Below, piece after piece: positions 29,258 to 49,692 of a DNA stretch of 64,000 nt. Location: contig JAPLXO010000004.1 in assembly GCA_026396065.1 (NCBI GenBank), forward strand, positions 18,387 through 82,386. The letters run 5' to 3'. Positions within the stretch are counted from its first letter, which is position 1. Every line of letters starts with the position of its first letter. Both the position numbers and the translations under genes were made by a program. This DNA is from Candidatus Nomurabacteria bacterium (GTDB taxonomy: Bacteria > Patescibacteriota > Minisyncoccia > Phycocordibacterales > UBA9973). The notes beneath the pieces are model-generated. The model did no database searches. It saw nothing but the letters and a program-made list of their open reading frames with translations, and had not been told where the DNA came from.

Positions 29258-30205
29258 TTATTTTTTACTATGAAATTTCTTATGGACTTCGAGAAGTTGC
29301 TTGTCAGTCACGTGAGTATAAATTTGAGTAGTAGCGATATTGGAATGCCCTAGCATCATTTGCACACTCCGGATATCTGCACCATTTGAAAGTAAATCAG
29401 TGGCGAAGCAGTGCCTCACCACGTGCGGGGTAACTTTTTTTGAAATACCAGCCATCGTGGCATATTGTTTTACAATTCTTTCTATCGATCGGCGAGTGAG
29501 AGCTTTCGTATCGAAAACATCATCACCATTTTTATTTTTTGTTTTTTGTGTCACTTCTTTGCCGACTTGGATAAACAAAGCTTCACTCATATCTTTTCTT
29601 TTTGCTAAATACGCCTTCACTGCATTTCGTGCATCTTCGGAAATAAAAACCACCCGAACCTTTCCACCTTTTCCACGAATAGAATATTCATCTACACTCA
29701 AATCCAAATCACTAGTGAGAGAGCAAAGTTCTGACACACGAAGACCCGTAGAAAAAAGTAATTCGAGAATTGCTTTATCACGGAGAGATTTCAAATCATT
29801 ATCTTTCGGCGCATTTAATAATCTAGTAAGTTCAGCGGGGGAAATGAGGTCGAGGGATCGCTCTTGAACTTTGGCGAGCTCTATCTTGTCAGCATGGAGG
29901 GATGTGATATCTCTCTTTGCTAAGAATTTTAAAAATACACGAAGTGCTATCAAATAATAATTCTGAGTTTTTTTAGATAAAGTTTTTCCTGTCGCTCTAT
30001 TATTACCAGTAGACTGTCTATTCAGCCAGAGACGAAATTCACGAACAACTTGGTCGGTAATTTCTTTCGCATTTTGTATCTTTGTATATTCAAAAAACCG
30101 AGTGAGGTAGTGCCCATAATTTTCGACAGTTTTAATACTGGAACCTTTTTCAATTTCCAAATATTCTAAAAATTGTCTTTTTAAGTTTTCTATCTCGGAT
30201 GCCAT
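29258..30205 (-). CDS. xerC: Tyrosine site-specific recombinase, XerC/XerD family.
   Basis: 315 aa. N-terminal SAM-like domain. C-terminal catalytic R...HxxR...Y with VRHCFATDLL and LGHSNIATTQIYTHV. Confidence 0.8.
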   Translation of the reverse strand: MASEIENLKRQFLEYLEIEKGSSIKTVENYGHYLTRFFEYTKIQNAKEITDQVVREFRLWLNRQSTGNNRATGKTLSKKTQNYYLIALRVFLKFLAKRDITSLHADKIELAKVQERSLDLISPAELTRLLNAPKDNDLKSLRDKAILELLFSTGLRVSELCSLTSDLDLSVDEYSIRGKGGKVRVVFISEDARNAVKAYLAKRKDMSEALFIQVGKEVTQKTKNKNGDDVFDTKALTRRSIERIVKQYATMAGISKKVTPHVVRHCFATDLLSNGADIRSVQMMLGHSNIATTQIYTHVTDKQLLEVHKKFHSKK

Positions 30206-30329: not shown

Positions 30330-31049
30330 ATGAAAAGTTTAATAACCTTTTACCGATTCTCATTAGTAATGGGTGTCGTTTTATTTATTGCTTTACCAAT
30401 CACAATTCAGCATATGTTGGTAGACAATGGCCGAATGCTCGGCAAAGAATTTGCATTCATTTGCAAAAAACTTCTGTGGGCATTTGGTGGTGAGTTAACT
30501 ATTGATGGAAAATTTCCTAAAAATAGTGAGAAAATGGTTGTGATGATAAATCACACATCAAGACTCGATATTATTTTAACGACAATTTACTTCAACGGTG
30601 AACTTGGAATACCTGTAGTCGCCAAAAAATTATTTTGGATACCAATCCTTCGGTTTTGGTTAAAAAGAAACAATGCTATTGGTGTAAACAGAAAAGACCC
30701 ACGTGATTGGGTTAGAGTTTACAAAGAAATGGAAAAAGTTTTGCAAGAAGGGAAATATCATCTTTTCATTTGTCCTGAAGGGGAAAGAAGCCTTACAAGA
30801 GAAATGCTTCCTTTTAAATTGGCGATATTTAAGTTAGTAGCCAAACACAACAAGACTATTCTTCCAGTTTCTGTAATCGGTGCTTTTGAAGTAAGTAGCA
30901 AAAAAGACCTGTTCATTGTACCTGGACCAATTTTTATGGTAAACAAAGAAATCATAAAAGTAAAAGATAGGACAAAAGAAGAATTAGCAAAAGTAACAAA
31001 GGAGGAGATTCAATATCAAATTGATCTCTGTAGAAGGAATTATTTTTGA
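30330..31049 (+). CDS. plsC: 1-acyl-sn-glycerol-3-phosphate acyltransferase (lysophospholipid acyltransferase family).
   Basis: 239 aa. N-terminal TM, NHTSRLD (HX4D motif) and CPEGER motif. Confidence 0.7.
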   Translation: MKSLITFYRFSLVMGVVLFIALPITIQHMLVDNGRMLGKEFAFICKKLLWAFGGELTIDGKFPKNSEKMVVMINHTSRLDIILTTIYFNGELGIPVVAKKLFWIPILRFWLKRNNAIGVNRKDPRDWVRVYKEMEKVLQEGKYHLFICPEGERSLTREMLPFKLAIFKLVAKHNKTILPVSVIGAFEVSSKKDLFIVPGPIFMVNKEIIKVKDRTKEELAKVTKEEIQYQIDLCRRNYF

Positions 31050-31131
31050 AAACTACCCCGCCAAAAACGGGGTATTTTCTTTTTTATAGATAAAAACCTC
31101 AAACTTGCAAAAGTTCAGAGCTTATGCTAGT

Positions 31132-31404
31132 ATGAAAAACATGTTAGCAACAAAGAAAAAACAAACAGTTATCAAAAAGCACCAAAAACACGATAAAGAT
31201 ACGGGTTCTTCCCAAGTCCAAATCGCTATTTTATCTACACAAATAGACGAATTAGCAAAGCACCTGAAGAAGCACAAAAAAGACAATCATTCTCGCCGTG
31301 GACTTATCAAGATGGTTGCCGATCGCCGAACACACCTGAAATACCTACAACGAAAAGACAAGGCTGCGTACGACTCAATAATGAAAAAAATGGAATTAGC
31401 TTAA
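31132..31404 (+). CDS. rpsO: 30S ribosomal protein S15.
   Basis: TGSSQVQIAILSTQIDELAKHLKKHKKDNHSRRGL matches the S15 signature. The ATG at 31132 gives 91 aa; the track ORF starts at an upstream TTG at 31105. Confidence 0.85.
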   Translation: MKNMLATKKKQTVIKKHQKHDKDTGSSQVQIAILSTQIDELAKHLKKHKKDNHSRRGLIKMVADRRTHLKYLQRKDKAAYDSIMKKMELA

Positions 31405-31469
31405 ACTTCAAAATCCCCATTAGGGGATTTTGTTTTTTACGGCAAGAAAATAGTATATAATTAAAACAT

Positions 31470-31985
31470 ATGGCAATAATAAAACACAAAGAACAACGCG
31501 TCGCAGTATTTATCGATACACAAAATGTCTATCATAGTGCCCGCAACCTCTATCACGCTCGCGTGAACTTCGGAAATATTTTGAAAGACGTAGTAGCAGG
31601 ACGCAAACTCGTGCGTGCGGTAGCATACGTCATCACGACCGAAGCAGGGGATGAAAATAAATTTTTCGAAGCATTAAATAAAATCGGAATTGAAACTAAA
31701 ACAAAAGATTTACAAATCTTTGCTGGTGGTGCAAAAAAAGCAGATTGGGATGTCGGCCTCGCCATGGATGTGATCAAAATGGCGCCAAAGCTCGATGCAG
31801 TCGTCATTGTTTCTGGTGATGGGGATTTTATTCCACTCGTAGAATATTTACAAACTATCGGTGTGCAAGTCGAAGTCGCTTCATTCGGAAAATCAACTTC
31901 AGGAAAATTAAAAGAAGTCGTTGACGAATTCGTCGACCTATCTGTTAATCCTAGAAAGTATTTGATTGGGGGTGGAGGGAAATAG
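31470..31985 (+). CDS. NYN domain (LabA-like, PIN-like) protein.
   Basis: 171 aa. VAVFIDTQNVYHSA...VIVSGDGDFIPLVEYLQ, typical of DUF88/NYN. Confidence 0.7.
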   Translation: MAIIKHKEQRVAVFIDTQNVYHSARNLYHARVNFGNILKDVVAGRKLVRAVAYVITTEAGDENKFFEALNKIGIETKTKDLQIFAGGAKKADWDVGLAMDVIKMAPKLDAVVIVSGDGDFIPLVEYLQTIGVQVEVASFGKSTSGKLKEVVDEFVDLSVNPRKYLIGGGGK

Positions 31986-31992
31986 AATTTAA

Positions 31993-32113
31993 ATACAACC
32001 CCCTAGCCCCCTTATCAGGGGGAACAAAATACAGAATACAATTTTTTAATACAACCCTAAATCCCTTATCAGGGACTTTAATACAAATACAACCCCAACC
32101 CCTTGTCAGGGGC
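31993..32113. repeat. Three tandem copies of a G/C palindromic mini-repeat (atacaacccc...cccYttRtcaRggg), immediately upstream of the DUF559 gene.
   Basis: Units at 31993-32025, 32049-32076 and 32087-32113. Each begins atacaaccc and carries a hairpin (cccccttatcaggggg, cccttatcaggg, ccccttgtcagggg). Confidence 0.7.
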
Positions 32114-32124
32114 TAAACTCAAAA

Positions 32125-32496
32125 ATGCAAAAGTATAAATTTCTTCCGTATAACAAGGAATTAATATTGAGAGCAAAAGAACTTCGTAAAAAACAAACAG
32201 AAGCTGAAATAAAATTCTGGAATAAAATTTTAAAAAGTGAAAAATTAAAGAATTTTAAATTTACAACACAGAAACCAATTGATAACTTTATTGTAGATTT
32301 TTATTGTTCAAGTCTAAAACTCATTATAGAAATAGATGGAGATATTCATAAGTTTCAAAAAGCTCGAGACAAGGAACGCGATAATATTTTAAAACAAAAA
32401 TTTGGATTGAAAATTTTAAGATATACGAATGATGAGATTTTGAATAATTCTGAATTTGTTTTGGAAGATTTGGTGAAGAGGATAAATACAAATTAA
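32125..32496 (+). CDS. DUF559 (PF04480, Vsr/restriction-endonuclease-like fold) protein.
   Basis: 123 aa. LRKKQTEAEIKFWNKIL...FKFTTQKPIDNFIVDFYCSSLKLIIEIDGDIH...RDKERDNILKQKFGLKILRYTNDEI matches the DUF559 signature. Confidence 0.75.
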   Translation: MQKYKFLPYNKELILRAKELRKKQTEAEIKFWNKILKSEKLKNFKFTTQKPIDNFIVDFYCSSLKLIIEIDGDIHKFQKARDKERDNILKQKFGLKILRYTNDEILNNSEFVLEDLVKRINTN

Positions 32497-32497
32497 G

Positions 32498-32628
32498 ATA
32501 CAACCCATCCCTAACCCTTCCCTTATCAAGGAAGGGAAACCTTCGTTCAATTAAGTAAATAAATTACTAAACTTTATTAGCAAGAAAAGTCCCCTGATAA
32601 GGGGATTTAGGGGTTGTGTTTTGTATTC
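32498..32628. repeat. Two more copies of the same palindromic mini-repeat family, mutually inverted, immediately downstream of DUF559.
   Basis: 32498-32542 (atacaacccatccctaacccttcccttatcaaggaagggaaacc) and 32589-32628 (the reverse complement of acaacccctaaatccccttatcagggg). Confidence 0.65.
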
Positions 32629-32784
32629 CTATTTGACAAAACTTCTTTAAATAAGTTATTATATAAATAATCTAGTTATTTGAAAAATTTGTTAAATTAT
32701 AGTTATTGGGTTTTCTTTGCTTATTTTATAGTAAGTTAAGATGACCTAATAAAAATAATTACTAACAACTAAATAAAAAATAAA

Positions 32785-33348
32785 ATGACAATACTAAACG
32801 GCCCTACAGATTTTGAAAATATTTCAAAAAAAGATTTGTTAAAAAGAATTCAAAACAGAAAAGATCCAATAAATTTTGAAAAGGTAGATTTTAAAAGAGA
32901 CAAAAAGACTAATAGGCAAATACTTCAATTATTTCATCAATTTATTAACTCTCCTGGCTTGCATGAAATTTTACTTTGGTATAAAAGTCAAAGTGCTTTA
33001 CTTGCTATATATAAAGATATCAACAAAGGTGTATTAAAATTTTATGGATGCAACAGACACATAGAACACCACGACAGTAATATAGAATATATTATTAAAT
33101 GGTTTTTACACAGAATACTTTACGACAATGGTAAGAATAAAGAATTAGTTGATAGATATACATTGGCACTTTGTGCTATTGGTCCCATACCTCTTATTAG
33201 CAGAGAAGAGAGAGGAAATATTTACCAGGGACACGAAATTAACTATTATTGTAATGTAGCGACTTTTAAAGTTTCTATTTCCAATGAACAAATATTTTTA
33301 GCAAGAAATATTTTAAGGTTGATTAACAACAAAGAACTTTTAAACTAA
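32785..33348 (+). CDS. Hypothetical protein (187 aa).
   Basis: ORF with a terminator hairpin at ~33360-33400. No family recognised. Confidence 0.45.
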   Translation: MTILNGPTDFENISKKDLLKRIQNRKDPINFEKVDFKRDKKTNRQILQLFHQFINSPGLHEILLWYKSQSALLAIYKDINKGVLKFYGCNRHIEHHDSNIEYIIKWFLHRILYDNGKNKELVDRYTLALCAIGPIPLISREERGNIYQGHEINYYCNVATFKVSISNEQIFLARNILRLINNKELLN

Positions 33349-33612
33349 ATGCTATTTTATTTTAAAAACCTCGCTTCATTTATAATGAGACGAGGTTTTT
33401 ACTTTTTAACCCCAAAATGCTAGTATAATCAATATATTTAACAGTTAATCAGTTTGTCTTCAAACACACAGTAATGTTCACCAAAAGTCGATTAACGCCA
33501 TTCGACTACACTCATGGTAAAGAACAATACTTTAGTTTGGAGATAAACTAAACTTTTTCTTTCCCTCTCTAAATCTTTGATTTGGGGAGGGTCAGGGAGG
33601 GGTAAATAAAAT

Positions 33613-35733
33613 ATGCAAAAAAAAGAGTACGAAGTAGAAATCGGTGGAAAAATTATGACCGCTATTTTTTCAGATCTAGCTGACCAAGCACACGGTAGTG
33701 TGATGTTGAAATACGGCGAGACTATAGTATTAGCGACAGCTTGTATGAGCAAAGACAAGCAAGCAGGTTTAGGATTTTTTAATCTCACAGTTGATTACGC
33801 AGAAAAATTTTATGCGACAGGAAAAATCCTCGGATCACAATATGTTCGTCGTGAAGGTAAACCATCAAATGAAGCGATCCTCGCATCTCGTGTTATCGAC
33901 AGAACTATCCGTCCACTCTTCGATCAAAATCTTCGTCATGCAGTGCAAGTGATTGTCACTGTTATTGCTTGTGATGACAATGATCCAGCGATGCTAGCTG
34001 TGAATGCTGCATCACTCGCACTCGTCGTTTCAAATATTCCATGGAAGGGACCGATTGGTTGTGTGAGAATTGGAAAGTATGATGACGATAATTTAGTAGT
34101 GAATGCTTCAACTACAAAAAGACAAGAAGAGTATCCTTACAAATTTGACCTAACAGTTTGTGGAAGAGAGGGAACAATAAATATGATCGAGGCTGCAGCT
34201 CGCCAAGCAAGAGAAGAAGAGCTGACACTCGCATTAGAAACAGCAAGTAAAGAAGTTACAAAATTAGAAGATTTCCAAAAGAAGATCCAAGCTGAAATCG
34301 GAAAAACAAAAAGAGAAATAATTCACGACAAAATTAGTGAAGAGTCTGTCACATTATTCAAAGAAAATATTTTACCAAAAATGGAAGCTGCTATTTTCGC
34401 AGGGGCAGGGAAAGCAAAGATTGATGAATTGCATTCTATCTGGAACGAACTAGTAAAAGAAAAATACGCCGGCAGTGATAGAAAAGATTTTCAACTCGAG
34501 GATGATATTTTTGATGAGACAGAAAATGATATGCTTCACGAAAAAGCAATCAAAGAAAATCGCCGTGCCGATGGTCGCGCAATGGATGAAGTGCGTGAGC
34601 TCTATGCACAAGCCGGAGGACTTTCAAAAATTTTACACGGCTCAGGAATATTTTATCGTGGAGGTACACATGTGCTTTCTGCACTCACACTCGGTGGCCC
34701 AGATGACAAGCAAGAAGTGAATGGAATGGATTTGCAAGCATCACGCCGATTTATGCATCACTACAATTTTCCTCCTTTCTCTGCCGGAGAACCTGGAAGA
34801 AGTGGTTTCACAAATCGTCGCGAAGTAGGACACGGAGCACTAGCAGAAAAAGCATTGATGATGGTCTTACCAGAAAAAGAAATTTTCCCTTACACTATTC
34901 GTATTGTTTCTGAATCGACTGCATCAAACGGTTCTACTTCTCAAGCAAGTATTTGTGCGTCGACTCTCGCACTCATGGATGCTGGTGTACCAATAAAAAA
35001 TCCAGTCGCTGGAATCGCGATGGGACTGATGTATGAAAATGACAATGCTTACAAAATTTTGACAGATATCCAAGGTCCAGAAGATCACCACGGTGATATG
35101 GATTTCAAAGTCGCAGGAACACGCGAAGGAATCACAGCGATACAGCTCGATGTGAAAGTCGATGGTGTCTCAATAAAAATTCTTTCTGAAGCAATGGCGC
35201 AAAGTAAAAAAGCTCGGCTCACAATTCTCGATACTATTGAAAAAGAAATTGCGAAACCTCGTGATCATATTTCTCCAAATGCTCCGGAAATTTTGATAAT
35301 TAAAATTAGACCTGACCAAATCGGTGGAGTCATCGGTTCTGGTGGAAAAATAATTAAAGATATTAAAGAGAGAAGTGGCGCTGAGGTAACTATTGAAGAT
35401 GATGGAACCGTATATTTCACTGGTCGTGATGGCTCTGCAGGAAAAGCTAAAAAGATTGTCGAGGAAATGACACACGAATTTAAAGTAGGAGAAATCTTAC
35501 AAGGTGAAGTAGTAAAAATTGCAGACTTCGGTGCATTCGTAAGATTAAATGATTTCACAGACGGAATGGTTCACATTTCTGAAATTGCACCTTTCCGTGT
35601 AGAACGTGTAGCTGATATAATAAAAGAAGGTATGATCGTGCCAGTAAAAGTAATCGGCATCGATCCTGTCCGTGGAAAAACTTCTCTATCTATAAAAGAA
35701 GCTGATCCTACATTCTTTAAACCAAAAGTTTAA
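33613..35733 (+). CDS. pnp: Polyribonucleotide nucleotidyltransferase (PNPase).
   Basis: 706 aa. Two RNase PH domains, KH (IGGVIGSGGKIIKDI) and S1 (GEVVKIADFGAFVRL) domains, and HHGDMDFKVAGT. Confidence 0.9.
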   Translation: MQKKEYEVEIGGKIMTAIFSDLADQAHGSVMLKYGETIVLATACMSKDKQAGLGFFNLTVDYAEKFYATGKILGSQYVRREGKPSNEAILASRVIDRTIRPLFDQNLRHAVQVIVTVIACDDNDPAMLAVNAASLALVVSNIPWKGPIGCVRIGKYDDDNLVVNASTTKRQEEYPYKFDLTVCGREGTINMIEAAARQAREEELTLALETASKEVTKLEDFQKKIQAEIGKTKREIIHDKISEESVTLFKENILPKMEAAIFAGAGKAKIDELHSIWNELVKEKYAGSDRKDFQLEDDIFDETENDMLHEKAIKENRRADGRAMDEVRELYAQAGGLSKILHGSGIFYRGGTHVLSALTLGGPDDKQEVNGMDLQASRRFMHHYNFPPFSAGEPGRSGFTNRREVGHGALAEKALMMVLPEKEIFPYTIRIVSESTASNGSTSQASICASTLALMDAGVPIKNPVAGIAMGLMYENDNAYKILTDIQGPEDHHGDMDFKVAGTREGITAIQLDVKVDGVSIKILSEAMAQSKKARLTILDTIEKEIAKPRDHISPNAPEILIIKIRPDQIGGVIGSGGKIIKDIKERSGAEVTIEDDGTVYFTGRDGSAGKAKKIVEEMTHEFKVGEILQGEVVKIADFGAFVRLNDFTDGMVHISEIAPFRVERVADIIKEGMIVPVKVIGIDPVRGKTSLSIKEADPTFFKPKV

Positions 35734-48864: not shown

Positions 48865-49692
48865 ATGGAAAATAAAACAAAAATACACAAAGCAAAAAAA
48901 TCATTAGGGCAAAACTTTTTAAAATCAGTTCCTGCACTCACAGCAATAGTGAAATCTGGTGAGATTAATAATGCTGATACTATTTTAGAAATTGGTCCGG
49001 GTAAAGGAGCATTGACTGAAAAACTTTTGGAAGTTGCAGGAAAAGTTATTGCTGTAGAAAAAGATCGTGACCTTTTAGAATTTTTACAAACAAAATTTTC
49101 AGAAGAAATAAAAAATAAAAAACTGATTTTAATTAATGAAGATATTTTAGAATATAATTTAAAAATAAAAAATTACAAAATTATCGCAAATATTCCATAC
49201 AACATTACCGGAGCAATTTTGAAAAAGTTTTTAACAGATGAAAATCAACCAGAGAGAATGGTATTAATGGTGCAAAATGAAGTGGCAAAAAGAATTGTAG
49301 CCCGTGATGGAAGTGAAAGTATTTTATCAATTTCCGTAAAAGCATATGGAAACCCAAAAATTATTATGAAGGTGCCTGCACGATATTTTTCACCAGCACC
49401 AAAAGTAGACTCTGCAATTATTGCTATCACAAATATAAATAGAAATAATTTTCACCCCATCCCAACCTCCCCCTTAGCAAAGGGGGAGGGGAATTCTTTG
49501 GAAGAAAAATTCTGGAAAATAGTAAAAGCTGGCTTTGCTCATAAAAGAAAAATGTTAATGGGAAATTTAAAAGAATTTGATAAAAAAATAGATTGGCTCA
49601 GTATATTAACTAAGTTAAACATATCAATAAAATCTCGTGCAGAAGAATTGACACTAAACAATTGGCTTGAAATTACAAAAATGGTACAATAA
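48865..49692 (+). CDS. rsmA: 16S rRNA (adenine1518/1519-N6)-dimethyltransferase RsmA/KsgA, carrying an in-frame palindromic-repeat insertion.
   Basis: SLGQNFLKS, SAM-binding ILEIGPGKGALT and NIPYNIT motifs. An extra segment NFHPIPTSPLAKGEGN is encoded by a G/C hairpin repeat at 49453-49493. Confidence 0.85.
   Translation: MENKTKIHKAKKSLGQNFLKSVPALTAIVKSGEINNADTILEIGPGKGALTEKLLEVAGKVIAVEKDRDLLEFLQTKFSEEIKNKKLILINEDILEYNLKIKNYKIIANIPYNITGAILKKFLTDENQPERMVLMVQNEVAKRIVARDGSESILSISVKAYGNPKIIMKVPARYFSPAPKVDSAIIAITNINRNNFHPIPTSPLAKGEGNSLEEKFWKIVKAGFAHKRKMLMGNLKEFDKKIDWLSILTKLNISIKSRAEELTLNNWLEITKMVQ
49453..49493. repeat. Copy of the DUF559-associated palindromic mini-repeat family (caccccatcccaacctcccccttagcaaagggggaggggaa), inside the rsmA coding sequence.
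   Basis: 9-bp perfect stem ctccccctt/aagggggag at 49467-49488. The prefix cccatccc.a.c matches the unit at 32498-32542. Confidence 0.65.

Follow-up and report, generated by a model that had tools for sequence, protein, structure and literature searches.

Why does a small endonuclease-like gene lie amid a set of G/C-rich palindromic repeats between the genes for ribosomal protein S15 (rpsO) and polynucleotide phosphorylase (PNPase, encoded by pnp), and do gene and repeats belong together? The question is raised by a stretch of Candidatus Nomurabacteria DNA of 64,000 nucleotides (nt) (contig JAPLXO010000004.1, positions 18,387 to 82,386 of the forward strand), here called the window. An original prediction, made from the window alone, had read the gene as a member of the DUF559 family tightly tied to palindromic mini-repeats, in the manner of the repetitive extragenic palindromes (REPs) and their RAYT proteins. 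As an association this reading holds. The repeat units, here called arms, are enriched around DUF559 genes in other genomes, they are present or absent together with the gene in relatives, and DUF559 is the one accessory family that recurs when the neighbours of arms are clustered. Judged by their sequence, the arms have the architecture of a widespread class of intrastrand triplex motifs described earlier as BoxC and PIT elements. We read the locus as a cassette of a DUF559 nuclease gene among triplex-class arms, in which DUF559 is the probable partner enzyme of the arms in a REP/RAYT-like way, and give this reading slightly better than an even chance.

The DUF559 gene of the window is bracketed by five G/C-rich repeats, three upstream (U1 to U3) and two mutually inverted ones downstream (D1 and D2; Table 1), as had been claimed. 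The local GC content is 31-35%, and their G/C tracts are therefore atypical. The arm core CCCTTRTCARGG, with at most one mismatch, occurs five times in the window, each time at the DUF559 locus, while shuffled sequences gave a mean of 0.51 and none of 100 shuffles reached five. The string ATACAACCC was found four times, again only at this locus, against 0.33 expected, and a generic arm detector reported 5 arms in the window compared to 1 summed over 20 shuffled windows. Arms D1 and D2 form a REPIN-like inverted doublet, and U1 is 84% complementary to positions 32591-32621.

The arms of the window share one plan: (AT)ACAA, a C-rich block X1, 2-5 nt, a second block X2, the loop TTRTCA and the complement X2'. 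X2 and X2' form a short G/C hairpin, and ViennaRNA folds only this part of the arm. The original description as a G/C hairpin repeat was right as far as the hairpin goes, but it is incomplete, since the third block X1 mirrors the stem. In two sister genomes (L001 and L003) the CCCC/GGGG stem of D2 is changed to CCTCC/GGAGG with X1 altered alongside, which argues that all three blocks are constrained together. Among the 547 arms called by the generic detector, those with an asymmetric X2 carry X1 as a mirror copy in 144 cases and as a direct copy in 13, with 43 ties. On these counts we rejected that X1 repeats X2 directly, and alternative hairpins likewise. Opposite C:G pairs of the stem X1 has C in 1400 of 1506 positions; opposite T:A pairs it has T (223) or A (140) and seldom G (5) or C (11). 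Seen from the G-rich strand, these preferences are those of the triplet code of the purine motif (G*G-C, A*A-T and T*A-T). All five arms, and a sixth copy in rsmA of the window, show the block order X1, spacer, X2, loop, X2' of class II triplexes. Because X1 mirrors X2, the third block of the G-rich strand can fold back onto the hairpin as a purine-motif triplex, and the arms may adopt this form in vivo. A pyrimidine-motif triplex of the C-rich strand is disfavoured as the main reading, A being frequent where only T would fit; the purine motif fits both. The hairpin with TGATAA resembles the anticodon arm of tRNA-Ile, but a tRNA-like element was dismissed, as ARAGORN found no tRNA or tmRNA in positions 31000-34000. 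A described RNA family was dismissed likewise, since the arms gave no Rfam match at E values up to 5.

E. coli has been known to carry BoxC/PIT/TM repeats since the 1990s; they abound in many bacteria, and Microcystis carries hundreds of copies. Holder et al. (2015, PMC4666352) describe as intrastrand triplex motifs (TM) what had formerly been named BoxC and PIT elements, citing earlier reports on BoxC and the work of Maher and colleagues on PIT. There are two types of motif, which are paired as inverted doublets; the E. coli motif (TMECO) forms a class II triplex in vitro, as seen by circular dichroism and nuclear magnetic resonance, and E. coli K-12 harbours 23 motifs and cyanobacteria hundreds (PMC4666352). 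The same authors report no mobility genes near the motifs and no function shared by the flanking genes. The arms of the window correspond to this class in the succession of C-stem, loop, G-stem, short loop (often TTA) and second G-stem with A or T opposite A:T. They also correspond in the two arm types arranged as inverted doublets, the mostly intergenic position and the hypervariability of the loci. Units near-identical to E. coli type A (CCCCTCTCC...GGAGAGGGG-TTA-GGGGTGAGG) are present in 27 of the fetched loci, including a sister genome of the window. The window arms differ from the published motifs in their stems of 3-8 nt versus 9, the TTRTCA loop and the (AT)ACAA lead-in, and arms are here also found in frame within genes. 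The TMECO consensus CCCTCNCCC-N3-6-GGGNGAGGG-N3-GGGNGAGGG has no match in the window; its exact matches in the fetched loci are confined to L041, L171 and the E. coli locus L212. The original prediction of a palindromic repeat family of DUF559's own is therefore not upheld: the arms belong, as far as sequence can tell, to a widespread class of which most copies lie far from DUF559. A genome-specific REP family was likewise rejected, because a scan with the exact arm pattern in one genome per species gave the same pattern in at least 120 loci over several phyla. The new element is the link to DUF559, as the published work on these motifs has no associated protein or mobility function. No paper linking DUF559, PF04480 or ycjD to these repeats was found, in a search that left most subscription journals outside.

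The 123-residue product of the gene matches Pfam PF04480 with 109.7 bits (cut-off 20.6) over profile positions 4-108 of 109. The NCBIfam equivalog of E. coli YcjD (PRK09767) scores 70.2 bits, below its cut-off of 218, and the protein thus is a member of the same Pfam family and not the E. coli orthologue. An identical protein has been recorded from a Candidatus Nomurabacteria metagenome-assembled genome (MAG). Residues D58, E69, D71 and H75, in the core VDF...E-x-D-G..H, are invariant in 25 homologues. In a profile search of PDB the only match was 3HRL (E 7e-23). The AlphaFold2 model (mean predicted local distance difference test score, pLDDT, 89.9) has 3HRL as its best structural match (E 8e-6), followed by the catalytic domain of I-Bth0305I (3R3P; probability 1.0, TM-scores 0.60/0.74), with Vsr weaker (probability 0.84). 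Conserved catalytic residues and a predicted nuclease fold are thus both present, and the Vsr-like endonuclease fold that had been proposed is borne out by family, residues and model, although Vsr itself is a weaker match than 3HRL and 3R3P. These three proteins share the fold class of DUF559. Vsr is placed in a different Pfam family and nicks at T:G mismatches within Dcm sites; I-Bth0305I is encoded by an intron and carries additional DNA-binding domains. No function is assigned to 3HRL (NGO0050), and the N. gonorrhoeae gene for it has triplex-type arms on its own flanks. DUF559 proteins are seldom found in phages; some plasmids encode them. A phage origin was not supported: viral contigs gave no match to the repeat pattern and phages only 2 weak DUF559 matches. 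A defence system was considered and set aside: in PADLOC the protein gives just weak partial matches to DpdF and mREase_II.

Repeats elsewhere had been expected beforehand to be enriched near DUF559 genes, and they are. For this comparison 80 DUF559 loci were taken from metagenomes by protein pattern alone (39-71% identity, mostly outside the candidate phyla). An arm lies within 150 nt of an end of the DUF559 gene in 66 of the 80 loci, on both sides in 41. The arm density near DUF559 is 6.5 per kb, versus 0.09 per kb beyond 500 nt, a 72-fold enrichment. Arms near an end were seen for 1 of 53 control open reading frames (ORFs) from these loci. Loop and terminus of the arms vary by lineage while the architecture is constant. 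An example with GATC ends is GAT-CCCCCC-TAA-CCCCCC-TTAATAA-GGGGGG, read as cyanobacterial from nearby GCGATCGC motifs. In relatives from the candidate phyla the layout is stereotyped: one arm 7-30 nt before the ATG, one overlapping or abutting the stop codon, and a further, inverted one 40-100 nt beyond it. Many annotated homologues have terminal extensions (PLSGR, PLIRGG, SPDKGR, ...NTTPP) that are translated arms. The reverse approach gave the same partner. When 531 ORFs beside arms were clustered, DUF559 was the sole recurrent accessory family (12 loci), and no transposase family was recurrent among them; the cassettes neighbour assorted housekeeping genes, such as dnaE/pth, smc, an S1-domain gene and murG. 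The pairing of DUF559 and arms was also seen in five named organisms, E. coli K-12, N. gonorrhoeae (the 3HRL gene), Azospirillum brasilense, Pseudanabaena and Picosynechococcus PCC 7002 (plasmid pAQ6); Synechocystis B12, with one upstream arm, is a weaker case. Physical linkage of DUF559 and arms is thus a property of the family as a whole.

Two of these loci showed further features. On pAQ6 (L211, 18400-27730) DUF559 and dense arrays of arms are part of a defence-like cluster, in which the DUF499 and DUF1156 genes enclose them, and further arms are found within the DUF1156 ORF. In N. gonorrhoeae (L213, 2005-2699) triplex-type arms with a period of ~281 nt follow the 3HRL gene at its 3' side.

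In E. coli K-12 (NC_000913.3) ycjD is located at 1351407-1351760 on the minus strand. The gene ends in a BoxC-like C-stem, CCCTCTCCC-TGA, after which a piece of the 3' end of ycjD is present in duplicate. TMECO #9 (1351204-1351239) lies 168 nt downstream; the chance that any of the 18 TMECO loci would be so close to a given gene is ~0.003. Of 5426 complete E. coli genomes 3378 have ycjD, as a single copy. For a comparison between strains, we assigned those tabulated in the triplex motif survey to phylogroups. Strains that we placed in A, B1 and C have 13-30 TMECOs, the rest 1-13 and B2 strains 1-2 (Table S7 of Holder et al., PMC4666352). In these three phylogroups ycjD is reported to stand in the place of eefRABCD, and the same replacement is reported as independent in ST69 and ST182 (PMC12817139). 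The correlation of TMECO number with ycjD by phylogroup is consistent with a partnership, from very few independent evolutionary events.

Comparison of the rpsO-pnp interval in relatives showed which parts of the locus are accessory. The two sister genomes with 95-96% identical PNPase (L001 and L003) have rpsO, the NYN gene, the DUF559 cassette with the same arms, a variable ORF and pnp, and the identity of the cassette among the three genomes is 82-85%. Four relatives with 84-91% identical PNPase and no DUF559 at the locus (L204-L207, 48 kb in all) have no arms in the interval. In L204 (91%) the order is rpsO-NYN-pnp, and the gap between NYN and pnp consists of a terminator and the pnp promoter and leader, without arms. 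L205 has a 583-residue ORF between rpsO and NYN. Between NYN and pnp, L206 harbours a diversity-generating retroelement (bAvd and reverse transcriptase) with RelB/YafQ, and L207 RadC and an 82-residue ORF; no arms were found in the rpsO-pnp interval of L205, L206 or L207. Over the four loci as a whole the detector reported zero arms in three and one weak match in L207, ~2.3 kb 3' of pnp. Arms accompany DUF559 in L001 and L003 and are missing without it, which indicates that the arms come and go together with the gene. The contrary case named beforehand, relatives with these genes between rpsO and pnp but no repeats, was not seen. The original prediction had the gene order right (rpsO, NYN, DUF559, a 187-residue ORF, pnp, as confirmed by the Pfam calls and coordinates), but of the three accessory genes said to split rpsO and pnp only the DUF559 cassette and the 187-residue ORF can be called accessory. 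L001, L003 and L204-L207 also have NYN between rpsO and pnp. Its presence in relatives with and without the cassette indicates that NYN is resident. The site that takes up inserts, a hotspot, is the gap between NYN and pnp. The 0.74 kb beside the cassette, which in the window contains the 187-residue ORF, is replaced by unrelated DNA in the sisters, with ORFs of 100 (L001) and 67 residues (L003) 3' of a conserved TTGACA-N18-TATTAT site, whose TTGACAAAAC box is kept in both. As a near-consensus promoter, this site would drive the DNA of the slot. The cassette and this hypervariable slot would have entered the hotspot in the common ancestor of the three sampled Nomurabacteria genomes.

Arms also occur away from DUF559 genes. 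The distribution scan gave matches in Nomurabacteria, Saccharibacteria, Paceibacterota, Poribacteria, Desulfuromonadaceae, Sideroxydans, Nitrospiraceae and others, frequently with several loci in one genome; among the 159 matches listed, 38 have DUF559 within 300 nt. Orphan arms are often inverted doublets of 85-100 nt, some with a nested BoxC-like module, and many are located just past stop codons. It was considered that they are decayed DUF559 cassettes, but few DUF559 fragments were found near them; deletion by recombination between flanking arms could still have produced some. Inverted doublets with CAACCCC...GGGGTTG ends could suggest MITEs (miniature transposable elements that carry inverted repeats); no target-site duplication is evident and no transposase family recurs at the arms. 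Of 294 arm calls, some overlapping, 67 are in frame within long ORFs, for instance of LigA and RecJ, where they encode peptides such as PxPPLxKGE or PPDKGxxGG.

The orphan arm in rsmA of the window is such a case. It is missing at the same site in the orthologues P0242, P0248, P0249, P0262 and P0267, and alignment at the DNA level shows a 33-nt in-frame insertion in the inter-domain linker of the window RsmA. A near-identical arm is found elsewhere in the rsmA gene of a sister genome, L210 has neither arm, and RsmA orthologues vary by arm-encoded insertions at several loop positions. From the existence of orphan and in-frame copies and the differences between sister genomes it follows that arms are mobile on a short timescale, with turnover between sisters. 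Rickettsia palindromic elements (RPEs) are similar in being small palindromic repeats that are in frame in housekeeping genes and encode short peptides in tolerated loops. RPEs are ~100-150 bp and confined to Rickettsia; we know of no nuclease or triplex architecture associated with them.

Further copies were noted at several places. In the sister genome GCA_026395995 (L003, 3363-3397) an arm of the rsmA type (CCTCCCCC, TTAGCGAA) lies in a xerC/D-like gene, the window orthologue of which (29258-30205) has no arm. A longer repeat, whose conserved flanks span ~150 nt, occurs seven or more times in the Poribacteria MAG Plut_88888 (L006, L010, L018, L019, L036, L046 and L050). The arm embedded in it is the commonest arm of the candidate phyla (ATACAACCCCCTAAATCCCCCTTATCAGGG), and these loci have no DUF559. 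L064 (1989-2087) contains three tandem in-frame arms of 36 nt in the gene for NAD-dependent DNA ligase (TPLTPLIKGENS x3).

What could the partnership consist of? RAYT (TnpA_REP) is an HUH/Y1 single-strand transposase, and a REP is a simple hairpin tagged by GTAG or CGTC. Systems of REPs or REPINs with RAYT, also called REPtrons, have in common with the present one a single small nuclease-type gene flanked by dispersed G/C-rich extragenic palindromes. In both, singletons and inverted doublets occur far from the gene, the repeats are far more numerous than the genes, and each lineage has its own repeat sequence. The enzymes are different, as DUF559 is a Vsr-like PD-(D/E)XK protein and no Y1 domain adjoins the arms, and so are the repeats, the arms having a mirrored third block and no strong tag. 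The resemblance to REP/RAYT is therefore one of functional analogy only. By this analogy, the arms would be small mobile repeats, found also as single copies, as inverted doublets and in frame within genes. DUF559 would recognize an arm in its folded state, probably where the DNA is transiently single-stranded, and nick beside it. The nick would start copying, repair-mediated spread or maintenance of the arms. The DUF559 gene between arms would be the autonomous unit, in which the gene travels along with the arms. As originally suggested, DUF559 may thus mobilize or maintain the repeats, presumably by binding or cutting them. In its widest form the hypothesis is that YcjD/DUF559 is the missing, structure-specific enzymatic partner, a nuclease that recognizes the triplex or the hairpin plus third strand, and that together with the arms it makes up an unrecognized class of autonomous mobile elements of ~0.6 kb. 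The scattered arms of 30-100 nt would be non-autonomous derivatives, in organisms from the candidate phyla to cyanobacteria, Neisseria and E. coli. This wider proposal is tentative, and we hold it to be somewhat less probable than its negation.

Several observations weigh against such a partnership. To our knowledge no strand-transfer activity is associated with a PD-(D/E)XK nuclease of 123 residues like this one, and any mobility would therefore need host repair. No biochemical or genetic test of DUF559 on the repeats was found in the searchable papers. A cleavage tag as strong as the GTAG of REPs is lacking in the arms: the ATACAAC lead-in was imposed by the search pattern, and beyond that pattern only 'AA' before X1 is kept. 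Target-site duplications are evident neither at the rsmA insertions nor at the cassette edges. The loop of the rsmA arm, TTAGCAAA, marks a subfamily other than the TTRTCA arms around DUF559. Of the 159 arm-pattern matches listed, 116 have no DUF559 in the fetched locus (up to 8 kb), so that most arms are orphans. The E. coli correlation is confounded by phylogeny, and phylogroups D, E and F keep 6-13 TMECOs although they lack ycjD according to data at the phylogroup level. The stems of four of the five arms around DUF559 measure 3-5 bp, under the 6-nt minimum for calling triplex motifs: compared to the ITxF criterion of at least 6 nt (PMC4666352), D1 (7-8 nt) and the rsmA arm (8 nt) are long enough, while U1 (5), U3 (4), D2 (4) and U2 (3) are shorter. 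Finally, a stable triplex in vivo went undetected by dimethyl sulphate footprinting (Holder et al., PMC4666352).

Other explanations were weighed against the same evidence. The association could be passive, in that unstable repeat hotspots capture, duplicate or retain small dispensable genes, or that DUF559 homes into repeat sites, with no action on the repeats. Triplex motif loci are indeed hypervariable (PMC4666352). The slot beside the cassette has been swapped for unrelated DNA in the sisters, the gap between NYN and pnp has received other inserts (the retroelement with a toxin-antitoxin pair, RadC), ycjD took the place of the eef operon in E. coli (PMC12817139), and most arms have no DUF559 nearby. 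Instability alone, however, does not predict that one protein family is the recurrent neighbour. Nor does it predict the stereotyped spacing, in which one arm is at the stop codon and an inverted one follows after 40-100 nt, or a linkage that crosses phyla while the arm sequence follows the lineage, and the other inserts in the hotspot (L205-L207) came without arms. We consider a passive association unlikely, although it is the strongest of the rivals. A slightly smaller probability is given to DUF559 as a host repair nuclease that clears triplexes or hairpins, or performs Vsr-like repair of deaminated C in C-tracts, without any spreading. Such a role would suit the Vsr-like fold, the finding that PIT elements block DNA polymerase in vitro (PMC4666352), and the tolerance of 13-30 TMECOs by the E. 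coli groups with ycjD compared to 1-2 in B2. A repair enzyme acting in trans need not be encoded amid the repeats, yet 83% of the genes are, and the gene is patchy and found in varied housekeeping contexts like an insert. This explanation overlaps with the maintenance half of the proposed partnership, and the two are hard to separate by sequence alone.

Arms that act in cis, as 5' and 3' hairpins which terminate, stabilize or translationally control the DUF559 transcript and do the same job for other genes, seem improbable. Their position at the stop codon and 7-30 nt ahead of the ATG, the terminator-like scores of some on the minus strand, and the many orphan arms just past stop codons would fit a regulatory role. 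PIT elements, on the other hand, were without promoter or terminator activity in E. coli (cited in PMC4666352). The conserved mirror block is not explained by a plain hairpin, and the in-frame insertions in rsmA, ligA and recJ and the site differences between sisters are left unexplained. An integron-like arrangement, with the palindromic doublets as attC-like sites and DUF559 and the 187-residue ORF as cassettes, is the least credible of all and was rejected. Its appeal lies in the small, promoter-poor ORFs with palindromes between them and in terminal heptamers that, in our own reading, resemble attC R''/R' (ATACAAC for RYYYAAC, GTTGTAT for GTTRRRY). No integron integrase (IntI) was found, however, the nearby XerC/D-like gene is present in all relatives with or without the cassette, the heptamer is not conserved outside the search pattern, and arms are ~30 nt long, often single, and in frame within genes.

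The partnership of DUF559 and arms matters because the repeats lack an assigned function, origin or protein, and because DUF559 is a widespread domain of unknown function. Their consistent link gives both a testable hypothesis, including that of ycjD and TMECO in E. coli K-12, and makes DUF559 the first testable candidate for what moves or maintains triplex repeats. If true, it would be a second partnership of repeat and nuclease beside REP/RAYT, with a different mechanism based on a Vsr-like nuclease and non-B DNA. It would also account for short Pro/Gly-rich peptide insertions in proteins of candidate phyla and cyanobacteria.

Table 1 Features of the rpsO-pnp locus and the rsmA arm, in window positions
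Feature	Position	Strand	Remarks
rpsO (ribosomal protein S15), left flank	31132-31404	+	Pfam Ribosomal_S15, E 3e-29
rpsO terminator hairpin	31409-31432		terminator-like site
NYN-domain (LabA-like) gene	31470-31985	+	Pfam NYN, E 1.5e-34
Cassette (DUF559 gene and arms)	31993-32626		~0.63 kb
Arm U1	31993-32022	+	ATACAA-CCCCC-TAG-CCCCC-TTATCA-GGGGG; also inverted-repeat partner of D2
Arm U2	32049-32075	+	ATACAA-CCC-TAAAT-CCC-TTATCA-GGG; shortest stem
Arm U3	32087-32112	+	ATACAA-CCCC-AA-CCCC-TTGTCA-GGGG; ends 12 nt before the DUF559 ATG
DUF559 gene, 123 residues (YcjD family, Vsr-like PD-(D/E)XK)	32125-32496	+	PF04480, E 9e-32
Arm D1	32498-32536	+	ATACAA-CCCATCCC-TAA-CCCTTCC(C)-TTATCA(A)-GGAAGGG; begins 2 nt past the DUF559 stop codon
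Arm D2, inverted	32590-32619	-	(T)CCCC-TGATAA-GGGG(A)-TTTA-GGGG-TTGTGT, given as plus strand
Promoter-like TTGACA-N18-TATTAT	32633-32662	+	directly 3' of arm D2; 11/12 consensus matches
Orphan ORF, 187 residues	32785-33348	+	in hypervariable slot ~32659-33395
pnp promoter and ~200-nt leader	33398-33612	+	right edge of insert
pnp (polynucleotide phosphorylase), right flank	33613-35733	+	Pfam RNase_PH, KH, S1
Orphan arm in rsmA (48865-49692)	49453-49491	+	CCCCATCC-CAA-CCTCCCCC-TTAGCAAA-GGGGGAGG; encodes HPIPTSPLAKGEG

The remaining features of the locus are given in Table 1. A match to the Rfam family UptR at 31363-31431 scores 31.5 bits, far below the gathering score of 100; it coincides with the rpsO terminator hairpin and is probably meaningless. 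The 187-residue ORF belongs to no family in Pfam, PADLOC or NCBIfam, and a hairpin read by eye at 33363-33397 resembles its terminator. The pnp promoter reads TGCTAGTATAAT, and the leader of ~200 nt that follows is kept in relatives. Promoter and leader together show 83-86% blastn identity in L001 and L003, and the same motifs are readable in the empty site of L204. The leader is presumably an autoregulatory 5' untranslated region of pnp.

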